Virus record (IMG/VR): IMGVR_UViG_3300045988_144993
DNA: 64,000 nucleotides
Reading direction: 5' to 3' (one strand)
DNA from: a virus
Made by a program: the position numbers and the translations under genes. How positions within the stretch are numbered: the stretch's first letter is position 1; the number at the start of each line of letters is the position of its first letter. Positions 1,545-53,119 of the stretch are shown piece after piece. Below the pieces are notes generated by a model. The model was not told where the DNA came from. It saw only the letters and a list, made by a program, of their open reading frames with translations, and did not search any database.

Positions 1545-1970
1545 ATGGGAGGAAAATTCAAAATGACAATAGAAAAGTTATGGAAATCCGCTTGTTGCGG
1601 AGAAAATGACAAGCTCAAAGAATATTATGAGAACGGTGGAAAAATCAACAGGAGATACAGAGCCTTCGGAATGACTCACAGCCTGATAGCAGGAGCTTAT
1701 CGCAACGGAAATCTTGACACGGTGGATTTACTCTATAAATACGGAGAACGCCCGGAAGGTCACGAAATGGACGAAATAGGCTATATTCCGGGCTATGCAA
1801 TACTTATCATAAGAACGGACGGAAAAAGGCAATATGTGCCGTTTGCAAGCAAGGAAAACGCATATACAATATATCGCAGCCTTCAGCGTGTAGCAGTTGA
1901 CACAACGGAAAATATTGAATCTCTGGCTGTTCAATGTGATAATGTTATAATGGAAAAAATCAACTATTAG
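1545..1970 (+). CDS. hypothetical protein
   Basis: ORF with ribosome-binding site GGGAGGAAAA. Confidence 0.55.
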   Translation: MGGKFKMTIEKLWKSACCGENDKLKEYYENGGKINRRYRAFGMTHSLIAGAYRNGNLDTVDLLYKYGERPEGHEMDEIGYIPGYAILIIRTDGKRQYVPFASKENAYTIYRSLQRVAVDTTENIESLAVQCDNVIMEKINY

Positions 1971-2000
1971 AAAAATTTTTGAGAAATTTCAAAAAAACAC

Positions 2001-2029
2001 TTGACAATAGGATAAACCTATGTTATAAT
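2001..2029 (+). promoter_or_regulatory. sigma-A-type promoter: TTGACA-N17-TGtTATAAT
   Basis: -35 TTGACA at 2001-2006 and extended -10 TATAAT at 2024-2029. The same architecture recurs at 11 other sites. Confidence 0.6.
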
Positions 2030-2062
2030 GAATACAGAAAACAAGGAAAGGAATGGCGCAAT

Positions 2063-2419
2063 ATGAAAGAAAAAGTTACAGCAAAAGATAAACAAATGCT
2101 GGCACATCTTGTACCATATGGAGAATTTGCGGATATTTATTTATGCTTTATATATTATAAAAACAAAGATAAATATATGGATTCTGTATTCAATAAGGTT
2201 AAAATGTGGGTAGAGGAAAACGGCGGTAGAATAGAAAAAATACAAGGCAAGGCAGCACCATCCTTTGATAATCCTACATTCGGAAAGAATAAAAAATATA
2301 TACAACGTGATTACGATAAAATAATTGACGGAGAGCGGAAAGGATATAAAGTTAAAATTGTTTTTCCTACATTTAATAATCGTGATATGAAAAATATTAT
2401 GTCAACAATTTATCATTAA
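2063..2419 (+). CDS. hypothetical protein
   Basis: The tracked ORF 1979-2419 begins inside the promoter. I trimmed the start to the ATG at 2063, which follows a ribosome-binding site. Confidence 0.5.
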   Translation: MKEKVTAKDKQMLAHLVPYGEFADIYLCFIYYKNKDKYMDSVFNKVKMWVEENGGRIEKIQGKAAPSFDNPTFGKNKKYIQRDYDKIIDGERKGYKVKIVFPTFNNRDMKNIMSTIYH

Positions 2420-2478
2420 GTAAAAATTTAATCATTAAAAACAATATTGAGAAACACAAATATTAAGGAGGAAAACTT

Positions 2479-2937
2479 ATGTCAACACCGAATTTTAGAG
2501 ATATGGAATACAATATGCCGATGGTATGCGGAGCATTAAACGATGACGAAACCGAATGCTATATTGAATTTGAAACGGCTGAACAATTAGCAGAGGAATT
2601 TTCAAATAGTTTAACATTTCACGATATAACAATCGAAAGCGGTTATTACTATGGATTCCAATTCTGGGTAGAGGAAAAGTTCAGTAAATATTTTGACCTT
2701 GACAAATCATCGGAATACTGCATTGACAATGACGATGCACATTATTATTTTGATATGTTCAGAAGTCAAGCGTTAAGAGCAGCCGATGCAGAGAAAAGGA
2801 AAATCGCAAAGTGGCTGGAAAAATTGCAGGAAAACGGTTTTGAAATTCTTGTATGCACGGCAAAATTCACCAACGGCGAGGCTATTTATTCAAGAGCTAC
2901 ACCGAGAACAAAACTTATTGCGGCAGCAATAGCATAA
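2479..2937 (+). CDS. hypothetical protein
   Basis: ORF with ribosome-binding site TAAGGAGG. Confidence 0.6.
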   Translation: MSTPNFRDMEYNMPMVCGALNDDETECYIEFETAEQLAEEFSNSLTFHDITIESGYYYGFQFWVEEKFSKYFDLDKSSEYCIDNDDAHYYFDMFRSQALRAADAEKRKIAKWLEKLQENGFEILVCTAKFTNGEAIYSRATPRTKLIAAAIA

Positions 2938-2998
2938 ACAAGTTATTAACCGTCACAGACGGAAAAATAAATTTTTTTGCAAAGGAAGGTAAAACATT

Positions 2999-4088: not shown

Positions 4089-4117
4089 TTGACAATAGTA
4101 TAAACCTATGTTATAAT
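4089..4117 (+). promoter_or_regulatory. sigma-A-type promoter: TTGACA-N17-TGtTATAAT
   Basis: -35 TTGACA at 4089-4094 and -10 TATAAT at 4112-4117. The -10 box and the nucleotides around it are almost identical to the promoter at 2001. Confidence 0.55.
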
Positions 4118-4668: not shown

Positions 4669-4703
4669 AGAAAATTCCTGGCAACAGGATTTTTCTTAAA
4701 AAG

Positions 4704-4779
4704 TTAGAAATAATTTTGAGAAAAACGCTTGACAAATGGTTAAACCTATGTTACAATGTGTATAGTAAATGATTTACTA
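4704..4779 (+). promoter_or_regulatory. promoter with conserved upstream element and palindromic operator
   Basis: Upstream element TTAGAAATAATTTTGAGAAA at 4704-4723. -35 TTGACA at 4729-4734 and extended -10 TACAAT at 4752-4757. A perfect 17-bp palindrome, TAGTAAATGATTTACTA, lies at 4763-4779. Confidence 0.6.
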
Positions 4780-5025: not shown

Positions 5026-5532
5026 ATGAGAGATTTAACAGCGTATGCAATAGAATGTATGACAGAGCTTGATAATATCGGAATTGAGTATGGAAATATT
5101 ATTGAGTTCACAGTAAATACAAGAGCAAAGAAAAGATGGGGGCAATGCAAGGCTGTTCCAGGCGGATATTCGATAAACATTAGTAATGTATTGCTTGATG
5201 AGAGAAACGATGTAAAAGGACTCAAGGAGACAATTCATCACGAGTTGCTGCATAGTTGCAAAGGCTGTATGAATCACGGCAATAACTGGAAGCGATTAGC
5301 ACAAAAAGTTAATAGAGCTTATGGTTATAATATTAAAAGGACAAATTCAGCAACCGACAAGGGTGTGCTTGAAGAAACAAGACCTCCTGTGAAACAAAGA
5401 GAAATCAATCATAAGGTTGTATGTCTTGACTGCGGACATATCTACACAAGAACAAAGATGAGCAAATTGATAACTAATACAGACCGTTACCGTTGCGGAT
5501 GCTGCGGCGGAAAGTTAAAACTTGAATATTAA
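5026..5532 (+). CDS. SprT-like zinc metalloprotease
   Basis: HELLH zinc-binding motif (IHHELLHSC). C-terminal zinc ribbon with the cysteine pattern CLDCG...CGCCGG. Confidence 0.6.
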   Translation: MRDLTAYAIECMTELDNIGIEYGNIIEFTVNTRAKKRWGQCKAVPGGYSINISNVLLDERNDVKGLKETIHHELLHSCKGCMNHGNNWKRLAQKVNRAYGYNIKRTNSATDKGVLEETRPPVKQREINHKVVCLDCGHIYTRTKMSKLITNTDRYRCGCCGGKLKLEY

Positions 5533-5571
5533 AAATAAGCAAGAGCAACGCAAAAATGGAGGTTATTTGAT

Positions 5572-5844
5572 ATGGTAAAATATACATTCAGAAACAAAAA
5601 ATATGAAGCCACTGGTAAAGCAGAAAAGTTATTTGAAAAATGGGCAACCATCGGAACATCCGATGAATTAAAAAGAAACAAATTAACATTGTGTCAATAT
5701 CATTCTTTGCCTGGTATGTTACACGAGATAGCCCAATCAGGAAAGACACGAACCTGTAGCTTTGATATTGCAGAATGGTTTATAAAGCGTGGTTGCAAAG
5801 TAACACTGGATGAACACAATATCAATTTTGAAATCACGATATAA
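5572..5844 (+). CDS. hypothetical protein
   Basis: ORF with ribosome-binding site GGAGG. Confidence 0.5.
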   Translation: MVKYTFRNKKYEATGKAEKLFEKWATIGTSDELKRNKLTLCQYHSLPGMLHEIAQSGKTRTCSFDIAEWFIKRGCKVTLDEHNINFEITI

Positions 5845-5857
5845 GGAGATATATAAA

Positions 5858-6274
5858 ATGATTAAGATTGAAGCATTAAAAAACTACACCATTCCCTATT
5901 GTGGAAATAAAAGAATCCAGCCTTATGGTGATTTGGTTATCTCTGATGGTGAGTGCCGAAAGACCTGCAAAATTCAGGATGACGGAGCAAAGCAGTATAT
6001 CACCTTTAACCGCAAGAGATATTATGTTCGCAATGCTGGCACTCTTTATAGTCCGAAGTTCGTGATTATTGGCAGTATCGAAGATGCTGCTTCGGTATTG
6101 AGACTATGTAACTACAAGGTTGAAATCCAGAGCGACACGGCACTGATGGTCTACTACAAGGACAACGGCAACGACCACACACAAGTCTTCATATGCGATG
6201 AAAGCAGAGACGGCTACTATATGATAGAGGGCAGAGTTCAGAATCTTGCCGACTGGATTAAGAGAGGTATCTAA
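5858..6274 (+). CDS. hypothetical protein
   Basis: Start trimmed to the ATG after ribosome-binding site AAGGAGATAT. Confidence 0.5.
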   Translation: MIKIEALKNYTIPYCGNKRIQPYGDLVISDGECRKTCKIQDDGAKQYITFNRKRYYVRNAGTLYSPKFVIIGSIEDAASVLRLCNYKVEIQSDTALMVYYKDNGNDHTQVFICDESRDGYYMIEGRVQNLADWIKRGI

Positions 6275-6276
6275 CA

Positions 6277-6495
6277 ATGTATATGCTACTTCAAGTAGAT
6301 AAAGAGGAAAACGGAGTTGTTGAAGGAACACATATGCAATGGTGCTGTGCTTGTTCTCTCGAAGAAGCAGCGACACGAGCAAGAGAAACAGAAAAAGCAA
6401 ATGGAAATCATATAACCGTTGCGGTGATTGATGAATTATATGACTCATACACAACCGGCAGACAGTTCAAAGAGAAGAAAAGACTTGATAAGTAA
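6277..6495 (+). CDS. hypothetical protein
   Basis: Start codon overlaps the upstream stop codon. Confidence 0.45.
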   Translation: MYMLLQVDKEENGVVEGTHMQWCCACSLEEAATRARETEKANGNHITVAVIDELYDSYTTGRQFKEKKRLDK

Positions 6496-6546
6496 GAGAG
6501 GAAATTGTTATGAAAATTAAAACTTGGATTAAGTGGCACGAAAGTT

Positions 6547-6768
6547 ATGTACCGGCACGTTGCCGACGGTCTGGGTCATAACCACGGCGGCACTGGAATG
6601 TTCTGCTCATACAATTACAATCCGAACATCTGCAAGGAAAGTTACTTTTCCGCATTGCAAGGAGAGCAGGCTGTCGCATATGTAAACAAGGTAGCCGCAG
6701 GTTGTGGCGATACAAATGATGTTGGAAAATTTAAGCCGTTTATCGTATGTCATAATGATAAGCGGTAA
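6547..6768 (+). CDS. hypothetical protein
   Basis: No ribosome-binding site. A 23-codon ORF at 6510, which does have a ribosome-binding site, overlaps it in another frame, so this may be a frameshifted gene. Confidence 0.3.
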   Translation: MYRHVADGLGHNHGGTGMFCSYNYNPNICKESYFSALQGEQAVAYVNKVAAGCGDTNDVGKFKPFIVCHNDKR

Positions 6769-6786
6769 AGTTGAAAATCTTATTGA

Positions 6787-7818
6787 TTGGATAAAAAGAG
6801 GATGAACAAAATGGAAAAATGCACATTAAGTAAATTTGAAAATATTGAAATTAAAAACGATACAAGAATTGCAAAAGATGACCTTGCATTTTGTGAATCT
6901 AACCAAAGATTATATCTTAAAGTTCTCAAAAATTATCAAAATATTTATGGCGACTTGCTAAAGGTACTGCAAAAAGAACAATCACAATTTGAAAAAATTG
7001 AGATGGAGAATACTTTTACTAAAAACGGATATTCTTATAAAAAATACGATTATCATTTTTTATCAATAAATAAAGAAGATTTTGCAGAAATAATATCCGG
7101 AGTTCACAAAATTTTTATCACAACTATTGTTGATTATTTTATTGAAAAATACGGCGTAGAATTAAATGTAAAATCTGTTGACGAAATACTCGGAATTGAA
7201 AAGCCAAAGCAAGTTGATGGTAATTATTGGGGCTATCGCAACCTAACCAATGAAGAAATTGATAAAATCAAAGAAAGAAACAGAGAATATGAAAAATCTC
7301 TGGATAAATACAGAGATAAAGTTATTACAGCAAAAATTGATTTTAATACTATCATTGATGATATTTTCGTCCAATTAGACGGATATTCTTTTGTTGACAA
7401 AGTTAAGAAAGAAATCATTGATTCTTGCAAGTCTGCTTGTTTTAATCAATATAGAAAATATGGTTATGCTGAATTAAAAAAGAATAAAATTTCAATCGAA
7501 ACAGGTTTTGATAGTTATTTTAGCAGTATATGGAAAAAATATGAAGCAAGCACAGATAATTCAGCATTTAGGGCAATAATGAGAGCCTTATCATTCTTTG
7601 ATAGCGGAGAAAATAACATTTCCATTTATGATAGCTGGTATTACTCATTCATTTATTACAATAAACAAGAAACAGATGGTATTTACGGCTTGCATTCCGC
7701 ATACGGAAATAAGGTTGAATCATTCAAATTTTATAAAAACGGAAAGTGGGAAGTAAAGTTTATTTCAGAGGAAGAAGCACAGAAATTCTTCGATATGTAC
7801 TGCAAATTGGAGGCTTAA
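6787..7818 (+). CDS. hypothetical protein, paralog of 7823-8593
   Basis: Its C-terminus resembles that of the next ORF (..KNG.W.VKF.S.E.A..F...Y). Confidence 0.6.
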   Translation: MDKKRMNKMEKCTLSKFENIEIKNDTRIAKDDLAFCESNQRLYLKVLKNYQNIYGDLLKVLQKEQSQFEKIEMENTFTKNGYSYKKYDYHFLSINKEDFAEIISGVHKIFITTIVDYFIEKYGVELNVKSVDEILGIEKPKQVDGNYWGYRNLTNEEIDKIKERNREYEKSLDKYRDKVITAKIDFNTIIDDIFVQLDGYSFVDKVKKEIIDSCKSACFNQYRKYGYAELKKNKISIETGFDSYFSSIWKKYEASTDNSAFRAIMRALSFFDSGENNISIYDSWYYSFIYYNKQETDGIYGLHSAYGNKVESFKFYKNGKWEVKFISEEEAQKFFDMYCKLEA

Positions 7819-7822
7819 TAAT

Positions 7823-8593
7823 ATGAATTTATTAGATAAATTTACAGATATAAAAGTAGATAATTCAAAGAGATTACCGGCGGAAGATATGGAACATTGT
7901 AAGATTGAAGAAGAAATGTTTTTGAATGCGTACAACGCATATTCAACGGCTTATAACAGTGTCAAAAATGCTTTTGATAGGCAAAATCAATTTGATGGCG
8001 GAAAATATAGCGGCTTTATCTGGGAATATTGCGATTGTGGAATAAATGATTTAAGAAATAAACTAATATCTTTGAAGTCATCCTTTATAAGTAAAATTGT
8101 CGGATATTTTAATCGAAAATATCACTTGAATTTGTCCTGCAATAACAAATTTGATGGAACTACATATCATAAAGATTTAAGTTTAGATGTTATCACAATA
8201 GAGGAAGTTTTGGATGAATATATTTTCGGAAGATTAGAAGGATTGACATTTACAGAATGTGCAATTAAACAAGCTATGGAGAAGAACGACATCAAACGGC
8301 AAGAATGGAATAAATGGTGTGAAAAATGGAATTATTCAGTTAAAGGAAGAGCTATTAAATTCCAATACTCAATCACAGACCAAAAACCGCTTCTTTACTT
8401 CTACGATAACAACGAAACAGAAGTATGTTCGACATTAAAACATAATAAGATAGATTCTATTCAAGAATTTAAGAATGGAAGTGTATCAGTTAAGTTTTTG
8501 TCTGCTGAATTTGCATTAGAATTTGCAAAGAAATATCTTGGATATATTGAAATGACCGATGAAGAAATAGAAAAACTGAAAGCGGGAAATTAA
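7823..8593 (+). CDS. hypothetical protein, paralog of 6787-7818
   Basis: Shares the C-terminal motif of the upstream ORF. Lies directly before the methyltransferase-helicase gene. Confidence 0.6.
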   Translation: MNLLDKFTDIKVDNSKRLPAEDMEHCKIEEEMFLNAYNAYSTAYNSVKNAFDRQNQFDGGKYSGFIWEYCDCGINDLRNKLISLKSSFISKIVGYFNRKYHLNLSCNNKFDGTTYHKDLSLDVITIEEVLDEYIFGRLEGLTFTECAIKQAMEKNDIKRQEWNKWCEKWNYSVKGRAIKFQYSITDQKPLLYFYDNNETEVCSTLKHNKIDSIQEFKNGSVSVKFLSAEFALEFAKKYLGYIEMTDEEIEKLKAGN

Positions 8594-8594: not shown

Positions 8595-11500
8595 ATGAAA
8601 TATATTGTTGAAAATTTGATAATTCCACAAGATAAACGGGCAGAGATTAACAACAAAATTCTTTATTTGATTGACAACGGAATAGCGGAAGAAAACGGAA
8701 TAACTGCAACTGACATAGCAAGCTCATACACCGGAAACGGTGGATTAAGTGGAGAAAAATTTTCAAACTATGAAAATTATTATGATTATTCAGAAGCCAA
8801 AAAAGAATTTGAACAAGGACAGTTTTTTACACCGTATGCCATTACCGATTTTGTAATACAATGTTTGAAACCGGACAAATTCGATATAATTATGGATTTA
8901 ACTTGTGGTCACGGAGCTTTTGCCAATTCTGTTCCCCAGGAAAGTAATTTCTTTGGTTGTGAAATTGATATGAAATCTTATAAGGTTGCAAAATATTTAT
9001 ACCCAAAAGCAAATATCCGGTGTTCAGATATAAGAGTATATAATCCTGAAATAAGAGCAGATGTTATTGTCGGAAATCCACCATTTAATTTGAAGTGGCA
9101 AATTGGAGATACGACTTATGTATCACAACTATACTACACAATTAAAGCATCGGAGAATATTAAACCGGGTGGTTTAATGGCTCTGGTAGTTCCATCAAGT
9201 TTTCTGGCGGATGATTTTTCCGATAGAGGAATGATAGAAGAAGTTTCAAAAGAATGGAATCTATTATGTCAGTTTGACATTCCTTCAGATACATTCAAAA
9301 ATCTCGGCGTTACTAATTTTTCTACTAAAATTATGTTTTTCCAAAAGAAAAGCGAACATATTTTAGATGTAAAATTTAGCACGAAAAAAATTGCAATTGA
9401 TTGTCTTAATATAGAATCTTCAAATTTCATTTATGAAAATTATATAAAGCCTGTAATCACTTTAAGAAATAAGTTGAAAAATCAGTTGTTTTTTGAAAAT
9501 TTACACGATGGCAAGACTCAAGAACAAAAACAATTTGAATATAAAGTTAAAAAAATGATGTTTGATATTAAGAGAAATCCTGCTTTACAGGATAAATATG
9601 CAAAATGCAGCGAGTATCTTTACAAATACCAAACACAGAAAATGCCAGAAGGAATGAAGTATGAAGAATGGGAAAAGAGGAAAATCACGCCTAATAAGGT
9701 ACTTGCCTATTTAAGAAAAGTTATCAAATCTGAACATAAAGTTGAAATTGATAAGATTGAATTAGTAAAAACTGATTATGGCTTAAAGTTAAAACCATAT
9801 AGCCGTAAAATGAAAATCTTATTGAATAAACAATATGGAGATTTTGGAAAATTTGTATCTATTAACGATATTGTTTCAGGTCAATGTTCATATCAATTTG
9901 AAAACAAAAAGTATGAAAAACTTATTGATAAGAAAATTAAAGATTTTCAAAGTAATGAAGTATCATTTAAGGATATGAAACAAGATTCTAATATAATGAA
10001 ATTTCTTGATAATTTTTCTATCCACGATTATAACAAAAATGAAACTTATAAGTTGACGGAAAAGCAAAAAGAAGATATAAATAAACTTTTGCAGAAAAGA
10101 TATGTTTTCTTGCAGTGGGAACAGGGTAGCGGAAAAACTTTTGCCGGCATAGCTCAAATGGATTATAGATTCCAACACAACAATATTAGAAATGCTTTTG
10201 TAATCTCTACTGCTATCGCGATAAATAACAACTGGCAAGATTGCCTTGAGGCTTACCATTATGACTATATAAGAATCAATAGTTATTCGGATATTCAGAA
10301 GATTAAAAAAGGACAAATTGTTTTAATTACTCTTGATATACTCAATACTTTACAAAAACATATTAAGAAATTTGTTAAAATGCAATCTCAAAAAGTTATG
10401 CTTGTAATGGATGAAAGTGATAGCATATCAAATCAAAATAGCAAGAGAACAAAAGCAGTATTAAGTTGTTTTAGAAAAATTAAATACAAAGTATGTATGA
10501 CCGGAACAAGCACACGAAACAATATTTGTGAAATTTACCCTCAACTTGAATTGCTTTACAATAATAGCGTTAATATGTTGTGTGAATGTGAAACTGTTTA
10601 TGTTGTGGATAAAAATAAGGATTCTGAAACCAAAGGCAAAATTATTTCCGATTTTAATAAACAATATAATAATCCATTCCCAGCATATAAGAAAGGATAT
10701 TCATTATTCAGCAAATGTTTTCTGCCAGATAAAATCACTGTATTTGGAGTTGTTAAAAAAACACAAGATATATATAATTCAGAAGCATTGAAAAAATTGC
10801 TTGACAAAACGATAATCACAAGGAAATTTGAAGAAGTCACAGGCAAGAAAATTTACGAAATCAAAAATGTCACTTGTAAATTCACACCGGAAGAAGAAGC
10901 ACTATATTCAATAGCAATAGAGGAATTTTATAAAATGCAATATCTATTTAAGACAACAGGAAACAGCAGAAAAGATGCTATGTTGAGAATCTTAAATCAA
11001 TTAACTCTTTTGCTTAAAATATGTGCTTGTCCTCACACATTCAAAGAATATTCTTCAACTGAATTGTCGAGTAAATATAAAAAAGTATTTGAGATGATTG
11101 AAAAGTGGAATAATGAAAGAATTGTAATAGGTGTTCGCCACGTTGACAATGTTTATTCTTATGCCACGGCAATTAAGGAATTATATCCGAATAGACCATT
11201 GTTTGTTATTACCGGAAATAACACAACATTAAAGAAAAGAATATCAATTTGTAATGAACTGAAAAAAACAAGAAATGGTATTTTAATTTGCACACAGCAA
11301 TCATTATCGTGCAGTATGAATATTGACTTTGTAAATAAGTGTATTATTCCAGAATTGCATTGGAATAATGCAAGTATGAGTCAGTTTTATTTTCGATTTA
11401 TCAGATTCACTTCTACGGAATGGAAGGAAATATATTTTGTAACTTATGAAAACAGTATAGAAGGAAATCTGTTAAAAATGATTCTGTGTAAAGAAAAATT

Positions 11501-11657
11501 GAACCTTTTTATGAAAGATGAAAAAGTCGAAGATGATGACCTATATAGTAAGTTTGGAATTAACGAAATGATGCTAAAGGCGTTAATGACAAAGGGAAAG
11601 GACGAGAAAGGCAATATTAAAATCTTATGGGGTCATCAAAAAATCACAAACGATTAG
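8595..11657 (+). CDS. N6-adenine DNA methyltransferase fused to an SNF2/DEAD-like helicase (DarB-like)
   Basis: N-terminal methyltransferase motif I (IMDLTCGHGAF) and motif IV (VGNPPF). Helicase motif I (GSGKT), motif II (DESD), motif III (TGT) and a C-terminal Q..R block. Confidence 0.75.
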   Translation: MKYIVENLIIPQDKRAEINNKILYLIDNGIAEENGITATDIASSYTGNGGLSGEKFSNYENYYDYSEAKKEFEQGQFFTPYAITDFVIQCLKPDKFDIIMDLTCGHGAFANSVPQESNFFGCEIDMKSYKVAKYLYPKANIRCSDIRVYNPEIRADVIVGNPPFNLKWQIGDTTYVSQLYYTIKASENIKPGGLMALVVPSSFLADDFSDRGMIEEVSKEWNLLCQFDIPSDTFKNLGVTNFSTKIMFFQKKSEHILDVKFSTKKIAIDCLNIESSNFIYENYIKPVITLRNKLKNQLFFENLHDGKTQEQKQFEYKVKKMMFDIKRNPALQDKYAKCSEYLYKYQTQKMPEGMKYEEWEKRKITPNKVLAYLRKVIKSEHKVEIDKIELVKTDYGLKLKPYSRKMKILLNKQYGDFGKFVSINDIVSGQCSYQFENKKYEKLIDKKIKDFQSNEVSFKDMKQDSNIMKFLDNFSIHDYNKNETYKLTEKQKEDINKLLQKRYVFLQWEQGSGKTFAGIAQMDYRFQHNNIRNAFVISTAIAINNNWQDCLEAYHYDYIRINSYSDIQKIKKGQIVLITLDILNTLQKHIKKFVKMQSQKVMLVMDESDSISNQNSKRTKAVLSCFRKIKYKVCMTGTSTRNNICEIYPQLELLYNNSVNMLCECETVYVVDKNKDSETKGKIISDFNKQYNNPFPAYKKGYSLFSKCFLPDKITVFGVVKKTQDIYNSEALKKLLDKTIITRKFEEVTGKKIYEIKNVTCKFTPEEEALYSIAIEEFYKMQYLFKTTGNSRKDAMLRILNQLTLLLKICACPHTFKEYSSTELSSKYKKVFEMIEKWNNERIVIGVRHVDNVYSYATAIKELYPNRPLFVITGNNTTLKKRISICNELKKTRNGILICTQQSLSCSMNIDFVNKCIIPELHWNNASMSQFYFRFIRFTSTEWKEIYFVTYENSIEGNLLKMILCKEKLNLFMKDEKVEDDDLYSKFGINEMMLKALMTKGKDEKGNIKILWGHQKITND

Positions 11658-11685: not shown

Positions 11686-12300
11686 ATGAAAGATAATAAA
11701 TTTACAAAAAGAATGAGTGACAAAGGGAAATTGACTTGGCAATATTTCACTATGGCAGCAATTACATTTGTTATAATTCTTGCCGTTGTTATGGGAATAT
11801 TCTTTATCTGTTCACATTCAAAAGTAGTGGCAATGACACCAGACAATATAAATGTGTCATTGATTGAGCAGAAAGGCACACCTACGGCGCAAACTATGCT
11901 TATGAATATAAATACAAGCAAAGAGCCTGAAAATGCAACACGGGGCAATACAGAGGGCAATATGTCTGAATATATAAATCTTGGAGAATTTCGTTTGGCG
12001 GTGTATTGCTCGTGTTCAGTTTGTTGTGAACAGTATGCAAGTAACAGACCGATAGACAAAGACGGTAATGAAATTGTATATACTGCATCAGGAAAAATTG
12101 CAAAATCAGATTAAACTATTGCAGCAGACCCTTCGGTTCTTCCATATGGTACTATTGTTTACATAAACGGTCACAAATATGAGGCACAGGATTGTGGTGG
12201 AGCAATTAAAGGAAACAGTATTGATATATACTTTGATAATCACGAAGATGCTCGTAAATTTGGTGTGCAATATGCTAATGTATTCACAGAAAGAAATTGA
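11686..12300 (+). pseudogene. 3D-domain (MltA/YocH-like) protein with an in-frame TAA
   Basis: An N-terminal transmembrane segment followed by a 3D domain (TASGKIAKSD[TAA]TIAADPSVLPYGT...GGAIKGN.IDIY). The TAA sits where a sense codon is expected, at about 12112-12114. Confidence 0.5.
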
Positions 12301-12366
12301 CAAAAGAATATTACATAGTATAATAGTAAATAGATTACCATACTATTATATGTTGGAGGAGTTTGA

Positions 12367-12666
12367 ATGAAATATAGCAAACAGTTTGCAGCACAAGTTT
12401 TACAATTCAACTCACAATGGGAAAATACAAACCAATCTGTTATTGCCGATAATGTAGAAAAATATCTCTATGCTAAATATCCTGAATGCAAAGAATCATA
12501 TAATGTAAAAATGGATAAGCTAATAGATATTACCAAAAGCAAAAAGGATTCAATTTATTCTTGGCTTAATAGAAGCCGTGAAAATGTAAAAGTTCCATTG
12601 CTAAAATTATGTATGCTTGCTGTTGCATTTGATGTTAATGTGAACAATTTTCTTGAAGTTGACTAA
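12367..12666 (+). CDS. hypothetical protein
   Basis: ORF with ribosome-binding site GGAGGAG. Confidence 0.55.
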   Translation: MKYSKQFAAQVLQFNSQWENTNQSVIADNVEKYLYAKYPECKESYNVKMDKLIDITKSKKDSIYSWLNRSRENVKVPLLKLCMLAVAFDVNVNNFLEVD

Positions 12667-12696
12667 AAATAATTTTGAGAAATTGCAAAATTGTTA

Positions 12697-12725
12697 TTGA
12701 CAAATCAAAAATTATGTTATATAAT
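12697..12725 (+). promoter_or_regulatory. sigma-A-type promoter with upstream element, followed by a structured ~170-nt leader
   Basis: TTGACA-N17-TATAAT. The next 170 nt (12730-12898) hold no ORF and contain a 9-bp-stem hairpin at 12810-12842. Confidence 0.5.
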
Positions 12726-12898
12726 AAAAATACCCTATTAAGAGTGTGTGAGGGAGCAAGCCCTATGACCGCACAGCAACCTGCCAACAGGTAAGGTGCT
12801 AATGCTTGACCGATAGGAAAATTGATTATCAAATCCTATCGGTGACGATGGGATTTTCTTATACGCTCTAATAATTAAATTAGAGAGGAAAAATTACT

Positions 12899-14501: not shown

Positions 14502-14875
14502 ATTCTGCTAAAATTTGGTTGGATAAACTGGCGGCGGTTCAGTAAAGACAATTCCTAATTTCATCAATTCAATAATAGTATTATTCAAATAAAGATAAAC
14601 CTATTTGTTTATTATTACTATTCGATTAACCATAGAGAAGCAAATGGGTTTATCGCATACAATTTCTTATTTATATATAATATAATAATGTACATAAGAA
14701 TCGTATTAAATAAGGAATTGTATGTAAATCAATACTATTCTTAATTTCTATAAGAATAATGAATAGTATAAAAAGTAATACTATACATAAAGGTATATTA
14801 TTCTGTATGGAAATTCTGCATACAAAATCGGCGGAGATTTTTTCACAGAATTAGAAATAATTTTGAGAAAAATGC

Positions 14876-14926
14876 TTGACAAATATAAAAGCGTTTGCTA
14901 TAATGATTATAGTAAATGAATTACTA
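14876..14926 (+). promoter_or_regulatory. promoter with upstream element and palindromic operator
   Basis: Upstream element TTAGAAATAATTTTGAGAAA at 14851. TTGACA at 14876 and extended -10 TATAAT at 14899. Palindrome TAGTAAATGAATTACTA at 14910-14926. Confidence 0.55.
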
Positions 14927-37559: not shown

Positions 37560-37577
37560 AGAGTGAAAATTTAATAT

Positions 37578-37663: not shown

Positions 37664-37713
37664 CTTTTCATTAAGTTTCACCTCTATTGACAGCCGGGAA
37701 AGACCGGCAATAT

Positions 37714-38920: not shown

Positions 38921-39003
38921 GCTGGTGTGGTGGAATGGCAGACACGGCAGACTCAAAATCTGTTGCTATAAGCGTGCGAGTTCAAATCTCGCCACCAGCA
39001 CCA
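38921..39003 (+). tRNA. tRNA-Leu(CAA)
   Basis: Acceptor stem GCTGGTG/CACCAGC. Anticodon stem GCAGA/TCTGT with loop CTCAAAA. Long variable arm. T-arm GCGAG-TTCAAAT-CTCGC. CCA is encoded. Confidence 0.65.
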
Positions 39004-39005
39004 AA

Positions 39006-39099
39006 GGTTCATTGGTCAAGTGGTTAAGACACTGGCGGAGGTATGTAGTGTAAATCAGGCACACTGCCGGAGACATAGGTTCAAATCCTATATGAGCCA
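39006..39099 (+). ncRNA. tRNA-like element (94 nt) with a 29-nt anticodon-loop region
   Basis: Acceptor stem GGTTCAT/ATGAGCC. D-arm GTC..GAC. T-arm ATAGG-TTCAAAT-CCTAT. The only consistent anticodon stem is CTGGC/GCCGG, which encloses 29 nt. No anticodon can be assigned and no CCA is present. Confidence 0.35.
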
Positions 39100-39155
39100 T
39101 AGATAATCCTATTTCGTTGTTAAGTGTGGCTGACACTTTCAAAAACAGCCAATAT

Positions 39156-39231
39156 TGCAGGATAGAGAAGTGGTTATCTCGTCAGCCTCATAAGCTGAAA
39201 ATCGTGGGTTCAAATCCCACTCCTGCAACCA
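39156..39231 (+). tRNA. tRNA-Met(CAT), elongator or Ile2-like
   Basis: Acceptor stem TGCAGGA/TCCTGCA. Anticodon stem TCAGC/GCTGA with loop CTCATAA. T-arm GTGGG-TTCAAAT-CCCAC. CCA is encoded. A TGTGGCTG motif lies in the 5' leader at about 39128. Confidence 0.7.
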
Positions 39232-39667: not shown

Positions 39668-40519
39668 ATGAAATACAGTGCATTTGATAAAAGAATGAAA
39701 AAGTATGAATTTGTGTCGAGACACTATTTGACAACTCGAACCCCAGTTATTATACGAATTGACGGTAAAGCATTTCATACATTCACAAGAGGTTTTCAAA
39801 AACCTTTTGATGATGTGCTTTCTAAAACTATGCAGGAGACAATGAAGTATCTTTGTGAGAATATTCAGGGTTGCGTTCTTGGATATACACAATCCGATGA
39901 GATTACTCTTGTTCTTGTTGATTACAGAAATATAGATACTTCTGCTTGGTTTGATTATAATATCCAAAAATGTGCGAGCGTTGCAGCCAGTATGGCAACA
40001 ATGGCTTTTAATAAATTTTTCAATAAAAGAGCCAATGATTATATAAATTCGGTTTTAGAACTTCAAGATATAGATATTCCACCTGAATCAGAATATATTG
40101 AGGTACTTAATAGAGCAATAGATAAAGGGGCAATGTTTGATGCCCGTGTATTTAATATTCCAAAAGATGAGGTTTGCAATAATTTGCTTTGGAGACAGAA
40201 TGATGCAACCAGAAATTCTATTCAGATGGTTGGTAGAACATATTTTTCTCATAAGCAGTTAGATAAAAAATCTATAAGCGATATTCAGGATATGCTTATG
40301 CTCGAAAAAGGCGTCAACTGGAATAATTGTCCTACGAAATACAAGAGAGGTAGTTGTTGTATTCGTAAGATTGATGAAACAACAGCGAGAAGTAAATGGA
40401 TTATTGATAATGAAATTCCTATTTTTAAGGAAGATGGTCGAAAGTATGTCAATGATTTAATATACTTGGGAGGGCAATATGAGTTATCGCAGAAGTCAGG
40501 AAAGAAATCACAGACTTAA
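39668..40519 (+). CDS. Thg1-like protein (tRNA-His guanylyltransferase / 3'-5' nucleotidyltransferase family)
   Basis: KKYEFV...VIIRIDGKAFHTFT..QKPFDD...GYTQSDEITLVL...LLWRQNDATRN. Confidence 0.75.
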   Translation: MKYSAFDKRMKKYEFVSRHYLTTRTPVIIRIDGKAFHTFTRGFQKPFDDVLSKTMQETMKYLCENIQGCVLGYTQSDEITLVLVDYRNIDTSAWFDYNIQKCASVAASMATMAFNKFFNKRANDYINSVLELQDIDIPPESEYIEVLNRAIDKGAMFDARVFNIPKDEVCNNLLWRQNDATRNSIQMVGRTYFSHKQLDKKSISDIQDMLMLEKGVNWNNCPTKYKRGSCCIRKIDETTARSKWIIDNEIPIFKEDGRKYVNDLIYLGGQYELSQKSGKKSQT

Positions 40520-50197: not shown

Positions 50198-50471
50198 AGT
50201 TATTACCAGAAAAAGATACATAATCGTCCGTAATGGTACATATATAATGTGTGGACTTGCGAGGAAATATTATTTCAAACCTATTGATGATATAGGTGAT
50301 ATACAGATTAAGACTTATTCAAGCGAGAAAAAGGCTATTGCTGGTTTTGAAAGAAGTTGGCATCGTAAAATAGGTGATGAATACCAAGTTGTTGAGGTTG
50401 AGGAAGTTATTAAGGTAAAAGATGATTTATATTCGGGGGAACCGATAGCGGTGAGCAATGGGAACAATTAA
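50190..50471 (+). CDS. hypothetical protein
   Basis: ORF. Confidence 0.45.
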   Translation: MSKVITRKRYIIVRNGTYIMCGLARKYYFKPIDDIGDIQIKTYSSEKKAIAGFERSWHRKIGDEYQVVEVEEVIKVKDDLYSGEPIAVSNGNN

Positions 50472-50495
50472 CACTGAATATTTGAGGATATAATA

Positions 50496-52445
50496 ATGAA
50501 TGAAAATAGAGTAGAGGAAGTTAAATCCCTCGTCAAAAAGTTAAATAAGTACAGAGATGAATACTATAACAATAATAATAGTATCATTTCTGACAGAGAG
50601 TATGATGAACTCTTTGATAAACTAATTGTTTTAGAACGAGAGACAGGATGTATATTCTCAAATTCACCGACACAATCTGTTGGTTATATGAGCTTGAGTC
50701 AGTTACAGAAAGTCAAACATAGCCATCCTTTATTATCTCTTGGTAAGACAACAGATATTGATGAGTTTATTAAGTATTTCGGCAACAAAGATTTTCTTAT
50801 TATGGCAAAACTTGATGGGCTTACTTGCTCCTTGACATATGACAATGGCAAACTCATAAGAGCCGAAAGTCGTGGTGACGGTGAAACCGGAGAAGATATT
50901 ACCCACAATGCAAAAGTATTTTCTAATCTTCCAACAGAAATTCCGTTTAAGGGTAAACTCGAAATTGATGGCGAGTGTATTATTACTTATGATGAATTTG
51001 AACGTATCAAAGCAAGAGAAAATACAAAATATAAAAATCCACGAAATCTTGTAAGTGGTTCAGTACGTCAGTTGAATAGTGAAATTGCTGCAAAACGGAA
51101 TATCAAGTTTATAGCTTGGAGGCTTCACGAAGCAGAAAATGTTGGTATTCAGTATCATTCTGAAGGTTTTGATTTTCTATCAAATCTTGGTTTTGATGTA
51201 GTACCTTATTATACCAATAGTATTAAAACTATTGAATGGATTAAAGATGAATGCGAAACCAAACAGATTCCGATTGATGGAATAGTAGGAATGTTTGATG
51301 ATATTGAGTATGGAAATTCTCTTGGTAGAACAGGACATCACCCAAGACATTCTCTTGCATATAAATTCTATCAAGAGGAAAACGAAACGGTTTTGCTTAA
51401 CATTGAGTGGTCAACGAGCAGAACTGGTCTTGTAAATCCTGTTGCAATTTTTGAGCCTGTCGAGATTGATGGAACTACTGTATCTCGTGCTACTCTTAAC
51501 AATGTAAGTATTATCAAAGAGCTTGAACTTGGTATTGGTGACATTGTAACCGTTGTTAAAGCAAATCAGATTATCCCGAAAATCACACAAAATCTTACAA
51601 GAAGTAATACATACCAAATACCTTCAGTATGCCCGTCTTGTGAAAATCCTGTGACGATAAAGAATGATAATGGTAGAGAAATGCTTTACTGCACAAACAG
51701 ACATTGTAAAGCAATTCTTCACGATAAAATTTCAAACTTTGCTACAAGGGAAGCAATGAATATTGTAGGCATATCAGAAGAAAGGTTACGCTCCCTTATG
51801 GATATGGGTTATATTACAAGTTTTGAGAGCCTTTATCACCTTAAAGATTATCGTAATGAAATTGCAAAAGCAAAAGGTTTTGGTGAATCAAGCATTGATA
51901 AGATTATCAATGCTATTGAAGTTAGTAAAAAATGTCAGTTAATCAATATTATTATTGCTATTGGTATTCCGGGAATTGGTAAATCAGCAGCAAGAACGAT
52001 AGCTGAATATTGTGAAGAAACAGGAGCAGAAAATACATTTCAAGAGTTTATCAATTTTGCAATGTCAGGATTTGATTGGAGCGTATTGCAGGAAATCGGA
52101 CAGACAACAAGTGATAATATCAATTCATATGTTGCAGATAATTATGAAGATATTCAACCTCTTGTTAATATTCTTCACATTAAAAAACCACAAAAATCCG
52201 ATTTAAGCCAAAGATACAAAGGCAAAACATTTTGTATTACAGGAAAATTAGTTGAATTTGACAACCGTAATGCTCTTGTGTATGATATTGAAGCAAAAGG
52301 TGGAACGGTAGTTTCTTCCGTGACTTCTAAAACACAATATTTAATTACAAATGATAAGACTTCTGGCAGCTCTAAAAATAAAGCTGCTGAGAAGTATGGA
52401 ACAAAGATTATTTCTGAACTTGAATATATAATGGGAAATTTCTAA
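50496..52445 (+). CDS. ligA: NAD-dependent DNA ligase
   Basis: KLDGL adenylation motif, an OB fold, zinc-finger cysteines, helix-hairpin-helix region and a C-terminal BRCT domain. Confidence 0.85.
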   Translation: MNENRVEEVKSLVKKLNKYRDEYYNNNNSIISDREYDELFDKLIVLERETGCIFSNSPTQSVGYMSLSQLQKVKHSHPLLSLGKTTDIDEFIKYFGNKDFLIMAKLDGLTCSLTYDNGKLIRAESRGDGETGEDITHNAKVFSNLPTEIPFKGKLEIDGECIITYDEFERIKARENTKYKNPRNLVSGSVRQLNSEIAAKRNIKFIAWRLHEAENVGIQYHSEGFDFLSNLGFDVVPYYTNSIKTIEWIKDECETKQIPIDGIVGMFDDIEYGNSLGRTGHHPRHSLAYKFYQEENETVLLNIEWSTSRTGLVNPVAIFEPVEIDGTTVSRATLNNVSIIKELELGIGDIVTVVKANQIIPKITQNLTRSNTYQIPSVCPSCENPVTIKNDNGREMLYCTNRHCKAILHDKISNFATREAMNIVGISEERLRSLMDMGYITSFESLYHLKDYRNEIAKAKGFGESSIDKIINAIEVSKKCQLINIIIAIGIPGIGKSAARTIAEYCEETGAENTFQEFINFAMSGFDWSVLQEIGQTTSDNINSYVADNYEDIQPLVNILHIKKPQKSDLSQRYKGKTFCITGKLVEFDNRNALVYDIEAKGGTVVSSVTSKTQYLITNDKTSGSSKNKAAEKYGTKIISELEYIMGNF

Positions 52446-52473
52446 AAATAAGAAATAATTTTGAGAAAAACGA

Positions 52474-52502
52474 TTGACATACATTAAATCCTATGATATA
52501 CT
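52474..52502 (+). promoter_or_regulatory. sigma-A-type promoter with upstream element
   Basis: Upstream element AGAAATAATTTTGAGAAA at 52449. TTGACA at 52474 and extended -10 TATACT at 52497. Confidence 0.55.
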
Positions 52503-52530
52503 TTAGATAAAGTTGAAAAGAGGTGAAAAT

Positions 52531-52803
52531 ATGAAAGCAAAAATTGAGCTATCAAATATTACTGCCGTTAAAAAGTTTACCGATATAGTAAGCACAATTG
52601 ATTGTGATGTGCGACTCATAGGTAAAGATGAAAATGGAAATGATTGGGATATATCCGCAAAGTCATTACTTTGTTCTTTGATTATGGCACAGAGAGAACA
52701 GTCTGAAAGAGAGCATACTGCTCACGAAGTAGATTGGAATACAATATGGTGTGTTTGCGAAAAGGATATTTATTCGGCAATTAGCGAATTTGTTGTTACT
52801 TAA
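52531..52803 (+). CDS. hypothetical protein
   Basis: Start trimmed to the ATG after ribosome-binding site AAAGAGGTGAAAA. Confidence 0.5.
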   Translation: MKAKIELSNITAVKKFTDIVSTIDCDVRLIGKDENGNDWDISAKSLLCSLIMAQREQSEREHTAHEVDWNTIWCVCEKDIYSAISEFVVT

Positions 52804-53119
52804 AAACATTATCGAGCAACACAAAAACAATACATAAAATATCATTTTTATTACTCATAATGTACCTTAAACTCCCTATATTGCTATTTTTTATGATAAC
52901 TATAATTGTAATATTAGAGCAGACCAAACAACGATTGGAACAATAACTTCAACGATAGGTCATAGTGCTTTAAGGAATTCATATAAATTGATAGAAATGC
53001 AATAATTTTTTATTATTAAGAAATAATATTGAGAAATACATAAAAGGAGAACTTATGGATTTATTGGCAATGAGTAATTATATAATTTGCAAACCATATT
53101 CTTTTCCAAAGGAAGGATA

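Follow-up and report, generated by a model that had tools for sequence, protein, structure and literature searches.

Genes and core promoters of the probable early arm

The window, a stretch of 64,000 nucleotides that was analysed as a whole, probably represents the early, accessory arm of a large gut phage of at least 128 kb, whose host belongs to the Ruminococcus-type Firmicutes. The methyltransferase-helicase, the integrase (an integrase-family protein) and the toxin (PemK) of the original prediction were all recovered, and its "tRNA-like repeats" are 13 real tRNA genes. A tyrosine-recombinase-family protein is conserved and keeps all its catalytic residues. A 947-aa homologue of YonO, with a DxDGD motif, is encoded immediately beyond the window's left edge (E = 9e-27 in BLASTP with SPbeta YonO), and the late operon contains no sigma-A promoter across at least 31 kb. 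No tblastx similarity was found between the window and SPbeta.

A scan for TTGACA-N17-TATAAT with at most one mismatch gave 17 matches against 1.55 expected, and all 12 promoters previously listed in this form are present, the one placed at 29125 lying at 29126. The TG that was said to precede the -10 hexamer occurs in 11 of these 12 and is missing at 12697. An additional strong promoter, absent from the earlier list, lies at 12297–12340 (TTGACA-N16-TATAAT, with TAGTAAATAGATTACCA directly 3'); it has a 16-bp spacer, carries no upstream element and is kept in relatives. The roughly 13 promoters typically place a -10 hexamer with a TRTG extension 17 bp from a consensus -35 hexamer, and by their near-perfect sequences they would serve the early genes through the main (sigma-A) RNA polymerase of the host. 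The division of the window into transcription units by these promoters is plausible, and its single independent support is a SAM riboswitch (12732–12819) that begins 7 nt past the -10 hexamer of promoter 12697. Of the three 20-kb thirds covered by generic terminator scans, two gave about as many hits as expected by chance and the middle one about twice that number; several copies of the upstream element are preceded by a hairpin and T-run.

The 20-bp element, its spacing and its stand-alone copies

The conserved upstream element proposed earlier is real, and motif scanning proved its occurrence non-random: TTAGAAATAATWTTGAGAAA at no more than 3 mismatches gave 12 matches against 0.22 expected, all on the + strand (1967, 2435, 4704, 12663, 14851, 21283, 22956, 24653, 30819, 36988, 52449 and 53017), and none of 100 shuffles gave 12. 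A weight-matrix scan added weaker + strand copies at 37294, 52800, 29164, 23538 and 29092, and no element on the - strand scored above 8.1. Dyad symmetry is absent, and the element always points in the direction of transcription, also on the other arm of the phage, where copies run the same way as the genes there.

The element accompanies ten of the 13 strong promoters, and its gap to the -35 hexamer is only ever 2, 4, 5 or 14 bp: 2–5 bp at six promoters (two copies degenerate) and 14 bp at four (one degenerate). The two spacing classes are offset by 9–10 bp. The claim that most promoters are preceded by the element thus holds, with copies of at most 2 mismatches at eight promoters and degenerate ones at 23560 and 29126; among the listed promoters the exceptions are 30739, which has the variant ATAAAAATAATTTCGCAAAA, and 4089, which has none. 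The position first given, -60 to -43, applies only to the copies with a gap of 4–5 bp (4704, 14851, 22956, 36988 and 52449); those at 1967, 12663, 21283 and 29092, with the 14-bp gap, lie at about -69 to -50, and the copy at 23538 has a gap of 2 bp.

All modules lie on the + strand. In the short-gap class, the module at 4704–4779 has an exact element (4704–4723) set 5 bp ahead of the -35 hexamer at 4729; its -10 hexamer, TACAAT, ends at 4757, and the palindrome TAGTAAATGATTTACTA follows at 4763–4779. A hairpin and T-run (4676–4697) lie just ahead of this module. Exact elements are also found at 14851–14926 (5-bp gap; -35 at 14876; TATAAT to 14904; palindrome 14910–14926; an LPD29-domain gene 3'), at 22956–23030 upstream of the PemK toxin gene (4-bp gap; -35 at 22980; TACAAT to 23008; palindrome variant 23014–23030) and at 36988–37041, where a 5-bp gap and a consensus core head a non-coding leader and the tRNA clusters. 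A one-mismatch element lies at 52449–52502, directly 3' of the NAD-dependent DNA ligase gene (5-bp gap; -35 at 52474; TATACT to 52502). The module at 23538–23588 combines the degenerate TTAAAAACACTATTGAAAAG, a 2-bp gap and a consensus TTGACA-N17-TGnTATAAT ahead of a 329-aa gene, and the ATAAAAATAATTTCGCAAAA module (30715–30838) has a 4-bp gap to promoter 30739–30767. The long-gap class begins with 1967–2029 (element 1967–1986; 14-bp gap TTTCAAAAAAACAC; -35 at 2001–2006; TGn-TATAAT to 2029), whose spacer contains the palindrome ATAGGATAAACCTAT (2007–2021), and continues with 12663–12725 (element 12663–12682; 14-bp gap; -35 at 12697; TATAAT to 12725; no TGn), with 21283–21367 ahead of the tyrosine-recombinase gene (14-bp gap; -35 at 21317; TATACT to 21345; palindrome 21351–21367) and with the module at 29092–29183, in which the degenerate TTAGAAATAATTTTGACTTT precedes promoter 29126–29154. 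This class bears a separate A-tract (TTTCAAAAA) adjoining the -35 hexamer, and A-tract maps of both classes place tracts at about -42, -52 and -63. The elementless promoter at 4089–4117 is a consensus TTGACA-N17-TGnTATAAT with the spacer palindrome ATAGTATAAACCTAT (4095–4109).

Seven copies, again on the + strand, stand without a core promoter. Four had been reported before and are borne out: two stand at 24653 and 53017, and those given as 30826 and 37285 lie at 30819 and 37294. Further ones are at 2435, 29164 and 52800. The copy at 2435–2454 lies 15 nt past the stop of the preceding gene and 24 nt ahead of the start codon at 2479; the exact copy at 24653–24672 lies between a hairpin (24617–24642) and the start codon at 24708; that at 29164–29183 begins 9 nt after the -10 of promoter 29126–29154, in the 5' leader of gene 29207; and that at 30819–30838 falls within the ~440-nt leader ahead of gene 31211. 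The copy TAAGAAACATTATTGAGCAA (37294–37313) is ~250 nt 3' of promoter 37013 and 170 nt 5' of the first tRNA of the 37482 cluster, TTAAAAACATTATCGAGCAA (52800–52819) overlaps the stop codon of ORF 52513–52803, and the copy at 53017–53036 directly follows a weak TTGATA-N17-TATTAT match (52988–53016), 18 nt before a short ORF. Four of the seven sit 18–35 nt ahead of start codons. Between the copy at 24653 and a conserved start codon there are only 35 nt, too few to hold a sigma-A core promoter, which excludes a role for this copy as UP element to a sigma-A promoter further downstream.

Conservation and homogenisation in related phages

A family-wide profile was built from 132 promoters of 20 related phage genomes. 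Adenine peaks at -45 to -39, -55 to -50 and -65 to -61, with T-rich valleys between, A-tracts recur at about -42, -53 and -64, and TRTG occupies -17 to -14. The relatives keep the A/T pattern of the window's 20-mer and do not conserve its G/C positions. Phage-specificity, raised as a question at first, is true of the exact 20-mer only, and related phages keep the module with a different sequence. Upstream-module identity is 0.625 within genomes and 0.538 between them, a difference reached in 0 of 1000 label permutations: each genome has its own homogenised version, common to promoter-linked and stand-alone copies, as seen in AATTAAATCAGAAAAAG (genome L080), ATTAGAAACAGTAATGAAAACATC (L064) and ACCCAACAAAGTAG (L075). 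Between the window and L054, three element positions differ in every orthologous pair. Among relatives of 94–99% identity the element is not more conserved than its surroundings (10 of 500 positions differ, compared with 69 of 2956 in the flanks).

The stand-alone site at 24653 is kept family-wide at the orthologous intergenic position, 20–35 nt before the start codon, and there the element is each genome's own version, the flanking 330-aa protein being just 29–58% identical. Two more stand-alone sites are orthologous, one preceding the polymerase gene and the other in the leader of gene 29207. Close relatives differ in their gene cassettes, and the breakpoints observed are not at the element; in L054, the recombinase gene is joined to a core of the window's 14876 type.

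A proposed UP-type module and its possible readers

With moderate confidence, and on the strength of sequence and geometry, the element may most simply be read as the UP-type, phased A-tract module of "UP/-35/TRTG/-10" early promoters, very probably with a second, sequence-specific reader as well. [quoted passage not shown] With a gap of 4–5 bp it would occupy the canonical position of -60 to -41; with a gap of 14 bp it would lie one helical turn further upstream, the TTTCAAAAA tract filling the place next to the -35 hexamer. The expected effect would be quicker polymerase recruitment, by which early phage promoters could out-compete host promoters. The sequences, their excess over chance, their register and phasing, and the conservation of the architecture in relatives are observed; alpha-subunit contact, promoter activity and early timing are inferred from them.

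The UP consensus of E. coli, AAAWWTWTTTTNNNAAA, has subsites at -42 and -52 (PMC2412878), and alpha-CTD-dependent promoters of B. subtilis have A/T-rich blocks at -43 and -53 (PMC4495994). Promoter-linked copies match AAAWWTWTTTTNNNAAA at 11–13 of its 14 specified positions; scores of at least 12 occur at 0.09% of window positions, and in the short-gap class the best register ends 4–5 bp before the -35 hexamer, in the canonical -57 to -41 placement. In this register and in subsites near -42 and -52 the copies resemble UP elements of the E. coli rrnB P1 type (PMC2412878, PMC4495994). Against the UP reading count the origin of the consensus in E. coli, the weak contribution of UP elements at B. 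subtilis rRNA promoters (PMC4495994) and the lack of extra conservation of the element among close relatives. The logic of out-competing host promoters is also that of the early promoters of T4, which are of an "UP/-35/TGn/-10" type with extra consensus regions (PMC2988021): in both phages many early promoters for the host polymerase combine near-consensus -35, extended -10 and -10 elements with A/T-rich UP-type sequences, and both share a consensus beyond the host elements (PMC2988021). The present phage departs from T4 in its Gram-positive host, a Firmicute, in the TRTG form of its extended -10, in an upstream module that hardly varies as a 20-mer within a genome and comes in two spacing classes one helical turn apart, and in the conservation of this module also without any core promoter. 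Among strong promoters of Bacillus phages, UP elements are reportedly relevant at those of phi29, as Meijer and Salas are said to have found in 2004, and the upstream A-tracts of an SP82 promoter reportedly depend on rotational phase, in work ascribed to McAllister and Achberger in 1988-89.

An UP element was among the functions first suggested, and this suits the promoter-linked copies; the stand-alone copies and the genome-specific versions are at odds with an UP element and nothing more. UP elements described so far are degenerate and depend on a core promoter for their action, whereas here the non-A/T positions are fixed per genome, vary between genomes and are common to stand-alone copies. 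A host alpha subunit reading minor-groove shape does not predict the fixed differences between the window and L054. Since the sequence is also conserved without a core promoter and changes in step within a genome, a second sequence-specific reader is very probable, and it is probably phage-encoded.

A tentative alternative, clearly behind the UP-type module, makes the element the target of a regulator that recognises a specific DNA sequence and most likely comes from the phage itself. At promoters such a protein would sit on one helical face 5' of the -35 hexamer and stimulate or hold back the host polymerase; at stand-alone sites in leaders and intergenic regions it would block transcription or influence it in some other way. 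UP-like composition would then be of secondary importance, or one site would perform both functions. The other function first suggested, the site of a phage-encoded activator, is favoured over a pure UP element by the orthologous stand-alone copies, which match each genome's promoter-linked version, and by the greater similarity within than between genomes, and gap classes 9–10 bp apart suit face-of-helix contacts. A precedent is the SPbeta repeated element (SPBRE), an oriented, A/T-rich sequence of 15–20 bp that recurs in some 10 early promoter regions and serves the master repressor MrpR as operator; SPbeta is likewise a phage of ~130 kb with a YonO-type polymerase, and some SPBRE copies are likewise close to ribosome-binding sites (PMC10516654). 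SPBRE differs in its location, within the -35/-10 spacer or 3' of the promoter, and in being a palindrome, ATACA-N7-TGTAT. A candidate protein did not emerge: none of 50 window proteins matched a helix-turn-helix family in Pfam scans, there was no MrpR homologue, and the tyrosine-recombinase-family protein, with its catalytic residues intact, shows no similarity to MrpR/YopR. The lack of a dyad and the strict co-orientation are less usual for operators, and the near-consensus UP match in canonical register would be a coincidence.

It is unlikely that the phage's own YonO-type single-chain RNA polymerase uses the element, above all in its 25–27 bp stand-alone form TTARAAAYATTWTTGAGMAAyAC, as a promoter. 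Such use would create tandem host and phage promoters where the element lies just upstream of sigma-A cores, and the element might double as an UP element. Besides the YonO homologue itself, this is suggested by an element that is long, asymmetric, co-oriented with genes on both arms, 20–40 nt before start codons and different by genome, and by copies that precede the polymerase gene and, within the lineage of the window, stand at the start of the late operon. Promoters of the T7/T3/SP6 type likewise differ from genome to genome, and those of single-chain polymerases in general (T7-type, YonO) resemble the element in being long, asymmetric, oriented motifs repeated between genes. Unlike them, the element is rich in the early arm, stands at fixed spacing to host-type promoters and is inconsistent at the late-operon head, where the L080/L098 genome lacks its own version, L095 and L096 have a weak match and two lineages carry a different repeat, AATAATTGAGGGTTT. 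The YonO promoter is undefined in the literature, and in SPbeta YonO is required only for the late operon (PMC5467207), whereas most copies here are in the early arm; the conserved -35 spacing and the phasing would be left without a reason.

The CodY consensus is AATTTTCWGAAAATT, and it is very improbable that the 3' two-thirds of the element form a box for such a host global regulator, tying early phage transcription to host nutrition: promoter-linked copies match at 11–13 of 15 positions (e.g., AATTTTGAGAAAAAT and AATATTGAGAAAATT) and scores of at least 12 occur at 0.06% of window positions, but every window copy has G in place of the box's central C, relatives do not preserve the palindrome's right arm, stand-alone copies reach just 8–10 of 15, the match adds little independent information because box and UP consensus have the pattern TTTT-N3-AAAA in common, and a conserved host factor leaves the genome-specific versions unexplained. 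We give equally little credence to a functionless repeat, a piece of promoter DNA copied from cassette to cassette by duplication or short-patch recombination and perhaps a recombination junction like the T4 promoter-stem-loop repeats; the modular promoters, the variable cassettes and the lack of extra conservation among close relatives agree with it, but the cassette breakpoints lie elsewhere, the 5'-side homology is too short for ordinary gene conversion, a stand-alone site survives deep divergence and the position relative to the -35 hexamer is conserved family-wide. Just as hard to credit is a role in RNA, where the element would signal processing or translation 5' of the ribosome-binding sites of read-through or leader transcripts: all copies are on the transcribed strand, some shortly before start codons, and the copy at 29164 can fold a CGUAUU-GAGA-AAUACG hairpin (-4.5 kcal/mol, z = -3.4), but a constant spacing to the -35 hexamer, in phase with the helix, characterises DNA and not RNA, hairpins with T-runs lie ahead of several copies, and most copies have no common predicted RNA structure.

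An upstream A/T-rich module at the alpha-subunit site is a known way to very strong promoters. For this phage family, the conserved promoterless copies of the UP-type module hint at a second reader beyond the host polymerase.

Promoters of shared architecture and their upstream element

The repeated 20-bp A/T-rich element TTAGAAATAATWTTGAGAAA and the promoters of the form TTGACA-N17-(TGn)TATAAT that it accompanies are real features of the window. A motif scan had been proposed as a check in the original prediction; over the window, the element matches 12 times at up to three mismatches, exclusively on the + strand, compared with 0.22 matches expected, and this number was equalled in 0 of 100 shuffles. 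Scanning with a weight matrix made from the element copies themselves gave five weaker + strand copies (37294, 52800, 29164, 23538 and 29092, copies being named by their start coordinate) and no score above 8.1 on the - strand of the window. TTGACA-N17-TATAAT with at most one mismatch occurs 17 times in the window against 1.55 expected, and these matches include all 12 promoters first proposed. At a loose setting, a generic promoter scan of the window stays at chance level; its top class, with 11–12 of 12 hexamer positions matched and mostly TG before the -10 hexamer, lies nearly all on the + strand, and the scan also brought up a strong promoter at 12297 (promoters are named by the start of the -35 hexamer) that was absent from the earlier list. 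Thirteen + strand sites match 11–12 of the 12 hexamer positions, 11 of them with TG before the -10 hexamer and 10 with the element, as expected from the claim that the element precedes most promoters. The long ORFs of the window (G+C about 33%) are all on the + strand, and the multi-copy architecture, combining -35, extended -10, -10 and upstream A/T module, is co-oriented with the early genes and is found in 20 related genomes.

As for the anatomy of the modules, all on the + strand, the element ends 4–5 bp before the -35 hexamer in the copies at 4704, 14851, 22956, 36988 and 52449; a variant at 30715 lies 4 bp from the -35 of promoter 30739, and a degenerate copy at 23538 leaves 2 bp. In the long-gap class (1967, 12663, 21283 and the degenerate 29092), 14 bp separate element and hexamer, and this gap is itself conserved as wTTKCAAAAAnnnTTA; the + strand promoters 4089 and 12297 have no element. 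Long-gap copies are situated one helical turn further upstream and a separate A-tract, TTTCAAAAA, adjoins the -35 hexamer; because this tract occupies the place beside the -35, the two classes alike have A-tracts at about -42, -52 and -63.

It has been reported that the UP-element consensus of E. coli is AAAWWTWTTTTNNNAAA (PMC2412878). The copies match it at 11–13 of 14 specified positions, the consensus being that of E. coli and the host here a Firmicute, and 0.09% of window positions score 12 or more. The best UP register of the short-gap class finishes 4–5 bp before the -35, which is the canonical -57 to -41 position, occupied by the five copies with a 4–5 bp gap. When 132 promoters of the 20 related genomes are aligned at the -35 hexamer, the family profile has adenine peaks at -45 to -39, -55 to -50 and -65 to -61 with T-rich valleys in between, and a TRTG motif at -17 to -14. 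Similarly, alpha-CTD-dependent promoters of B. subtilis have A/T blocks centred at -43 and -53 (PMC4495994), and the early promoters of T4, described as 'UP/-35/TGn/-10' promoters with additional shared consensus (PMC2988021), are the closest precedent for the promoter set of the window. Judged by its sequence, the architecture belongs to a known type, the very strong early promoter. In composition as in placement, the promoter-linked copies resemble UP elements, and UP function is their most likely mechanism, with a probability that we put at about even. Among relatives 94–99% identical to the window, the element has accumulated differences as fast as its flanks, with no extra conservation, so purifying selection on it among these close relatives was rejected.

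Other motifs accompany the promoters. The palindrome TAGTAAATGAKTTACTA begins 5 nt past the -10 hexamer at four window promoters (4763–4779, 14910–14926, 21351–21367 and 23014–23030) and overlaps the final base of the -10 hexamer at promoter 12297 (12324–12340); of 41 family promoters, 29 have it at this distance, which places it at about +1, and in two related genomes, L064 and L074, its ends covary (CAGTAA...TTACTG). The RNA hairpin that it could form has a predicted stability of just -2.5 to -3.6 kcal/mol, too weak to favour a stabilising 5' hairpin, and an operator for a dimeric repressor thus seems as likely as a 5' stabiliser. A second palindrome, ATAGGATAAACCTAT (ATAGG-ATAAA-CCTAT), lies between the -35 and -10 hexamers at 2007–2021 in promoter 2001 and at 4095–4109 in promoter 4089, and partially at 4736–4749 in promoter 4729; these three promoters lie closest to the divergent control region. 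The palindrome recurs in the first rightward promoter beyond the window, and in position it resembles the SPBRE operator of SPbeta. A SAM riboswitch (Rfam RF00162, 58.7 bits) at 12732–12819 starts 7 nt after the -10 of promoter 12697, which is thereby supported independently; riboswitch and promoter are conserved together in relatives. The same phage has a SAM synthetase (55297–56361), a radical-SAM/SPASM enzyme (26552–27616) and an N6 methyltransferase-helicase (8595–11657), and a weak SAM-lyase match is present at 8357–8677 of the relative L088.

Stand-alone copies and genome-specific versions

If the element were an UP element only, a core promoter would be expected downstream of every copy, but seven + strand copies have none (2435, 24653, 29164, 30819, 37294, 52800 and 53017), in agreement with the original prediction that such copies exist. 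They have in common a short 3' extension, yACRAAA, and four of the seven lie 18–35 nt before a start codon. The copy at 24653 has a hairpin on one side and, only 35 nt away on the other, the start codon of a conserved gene, too close for it to serve a downstream sigma-A promoter. This intergenic site is element-like in relatives although the flanking 330-aa protein is just 29–58% identical to that of the window, and each genome has its own version of it, namely AATTAAATCAGAAAAAG in L080, ATTAGAAACAGTAATGAAAACATC in L064, ACCCAACAAAGTAG in L075 and TWAAAATAAGACRGAATAAC in L056 and L063; in four genomes the orthologous site is a complete promoter. The stand-alone site before the polymerase gene is conserved in the window's lineage and in the relative L098, and the site in the leader of gene 29207 is conserved in six genomes.

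In the family comparison, the module is homogenised genome by genome, each having a version of its own. Identity over -62 to -36 is 0.625 within genomes versus 0.538 between them, a difference reached in 0 of 1000 label permutations, and in the spacer the homogenisation is far less marked, while past the -10 hexamer there is none. Likewise, between the window and the related genome L054, orthologous promoters have kept their spacers, while the elements of each pair differ, always at the same three positions. Conserved orthologous stand-alone sites, together with genome-specific versions, call for a second, sequence-specific reader: a host alpha subunit reading minor-groove shape predicts none of these patterns, and a sequence-specific reader that differs from phage to phage predicts them. 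Of the two alternatives first offered, an UP element or the site of a phage-encoded activator, the UP-like sequence and register thus hold at the promoters, but the stand-alone, covarying copies need a second reader.

Two simpler accounts of the stand-alone copies were rejected. As hidden sigma-A promoters, with TTGAGA or TTAGAA as the -35, they gave no consistent -10, and their distances to start codons are too short; as decay relics, suggested by a full promoter at the 24653 site in L058, they would not explain a site kept family-wide in genome-specific form. The leader copy at 29164–29189 can be folded into a CGUAUU-GAGA-AAUACG hairpin with a GNRA-type loop (-4.5 kcal/mol, z = -3.4); the other copies have at most four A-U pairs in the predicted hairpin. 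In addition, a lone short-gap element occurs on the - strand at late-arm position 32866 of the stitched contig IMGVR_UViG_3300045988_143165, facing against the late genes and preceding a weak TTTACA-N17-TATCCT match; it probably drives a small inserted gene (moron).

Candidate second readers

That some phage-encoded reader recognises the element is, in our estimate, somewhat less probable than not, and this estimate is divided among a regulator, the YonO-type polymerase and a role at the RNA level. It is improbable that the 20–27 bp element is the recognition sequence of a phage-encoded transcription component that evolves together with it in each genome; at its boldest, this reading makes the element the promoter or specificity site of the phage's YonO-type polymerase. 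Under such a mechanism, the element, in UP register before host-type promoters, would be read early by the host polymerase and later by the phage polymerase.

A phage DNA-binding regulator is a tentative candidate and has the largest share among the phage-encoded readers. It has a precedent in SPBRE, the operator of the SPbeta repressor MrpR (PMC10516654), but, where an MrpR/YopR-like recombinase-fold protein would have lost its catalytic residues, the recombinase-family protein of the window retains the catalytic R, H-x-x-R, H and Y, with R88/R89, H195, R198, H225 and Y234 invariant in 19 homologues, and Pfam analysis of 50 window proteins detected no helix-turn-helix. No similarity between the recombinase and YopR was found in a PDB search or by profile comparison. 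The SPBRE/MrpR analogy itself was rejected, given the lack of tblastx similarity, the intact recombinase residues, no YopR or YopP likeness and the other position of the element: in SPbeta, SPBRE is found within the spacer or past the -10, whereas the window element lies upstream of the -35 in 10 promoters.

A YonO-type polymerase using the element as its promoter is unlikely, more so than the regulator. A 947-aa YonO homologue is encoded about 4–7 kb left of window position 1 (L088, 3198–6041, - strand), and the same gene is found in the relative L092 at 5220–8063; the protein matches SPbeta YonO by BLASTP (E = 9e-27, 29% identity over 449 residues) and has DxDGD. It lies on the divergent arm, followed by a leader of about 1 kb and at least 31 kb of late-type genes, and no strong sigma-A promoter was found in this leftward late arm over at least 31 kb. 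Homologue, leader and a late arm of this kind make the overall layout SPbeta-like, although tblastx of the window against SPbeta finds no similarity. The element is long, asymmetric and oriented, varies in sequence by genome, and has copies before the polymerase gene and, in the window's lineage, before the late operon, all of which would suit a polymerase promoter. However, the head of the late operon in L098 is without that genome's own version, the relatives L095 and L096 match weakly there, the early arm holds most copies, and the fixed, phased spacing to the -35 hexamer is left unexplained. For YonO and its class of polymerase, the literature gives no defined promoter (PMC5467207).

The late region has sequence features of its own. 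The repeat AATAATTGAGGGTTT is present in 3–4 copies, 47–132 bp apart, in the divergent intergenic region (L088, 7475–7730) and once more just ahead of the late-operon leader (L092, 8966; L098, 9063), where a relative at 64% identity has kept it. Origin repeats, a regulator site and the late promoter are all conceivable roles for it. At L092 9020–9075, the late-operon leader contains a strongly conserved hairpin followed by a pyrimidine tract, ATGAAGGGAAATATAGCCCTTTACTCTCATTTCTTTATCTTTCTCTTTTCTTG, which is kept where the neighbouring 290-aa protein is only 64–77% identical and marks the start of a non-coding leader of about 1 kb, a parallel to the SPbeta non-coding RNA upstream of yonK.

A role of the element at the RNA level is very improbable, less likely than either protein reader. 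The element could also be a host CodY-type box. The CodY box is the 15-bp palindrome AATTTTCWGAAAATT, and the promoter-linked copies match it at 11–13 of 15 positions; yet the central C of the box is always G in the copies, its right arm is not conserved in relatives, the stand-alone copies reach just 8–10 of 15, the consensus overlaps the UP pattern, and a host factor is not expected to vary among phages. The Spo0A box was dismissed on poor matches to the element.

The phage family and its early arm

Megablast of 10 kb of the window against INPHARED gave no match, and protein searches gave distant matches only, such as Clostridium phage D-1873 (48%) for the methyltransferase-helicase. IMG/VR contigs 94–99% identical to the window measure 81–128 kb; in exact scans of IMG/VR, the element occurs only in these relatives, apart from three matches that fall within coding sequence of unrelated contigs, and matches in other phages to the pattern ATWTTGAGAAA-N5-TTGACA were discarded as unrelated by tblastx. 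The recombinase has more than 460 homologues, many on 100–190 kb contigs, with 64–97% identity among the best 120 listed, and in genome records, relatives turn up in MAGs of Ruminococcus, Oscillospiraceae and Clostridia and in Ruminococcus sp. YE282, a culturable host whose contig NZ_FMUV01000001.1 encodes a recombinase with 65% identity.

The gene content of the window is of accessory or early type: methyltransferase-helicase, LPD29-domain protein, tyrosine recombinase, PemK toxin, radical-SAM enzyme, SAM synthetase, SPFH-domain protein, NAD-dependent DNA ligase, tRNA-His guanylyltransferase and PurA-like protein. Thirteen tRNA genes in three clusters (32964–34032, 37482–37805, 38921–39231 and 39668–40519) adjoin the Thg1-like tRNA-His guanylyltransferase, and Rfam gave no match for the 440-nt leader that runs from promoter 37013 to the second cluster's first tRNA. 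The tyrosine recombinase (21384–22340), among the best-conserved proteins of the region, adjoins the PemK/MazF toxin (23146–23541), a pairing that points away from classical integration and towards plasmid-like maintenance or dimer resolution. At 60595–61794, a divergent adenylosuccinate-synthetase-like protein of 399 aa is encoded; a 2-aminoadenine (Z) genome that would alter minor-groove reading was considered and set aside, since this PurA-like protein keeps the GDEGKG aspartate and its PDB match is PurA, not PurZ, so there is no sign of such a genome.

As read here, the promoter set gives the T4 early promoters a clean counterpart on the Gram-positive side, within a family of uncultivated 100–190 kb Ruminococcus phages that are common in gut metagenomes; it maps putative early transcription units and would offer strong, ready-made promoter parts for Clostridia. 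Less ordinary is that one sequence persists at sites lacking a promoter and that its copies change together in each genome. Should the reader of the element be a phage factor, this family would provide a tractable example of co-evolution between a cis element and what reads it, and if that reader is the YonO-type polymerase, the element would be a first candidate recognition sequence for that class of polymerase.
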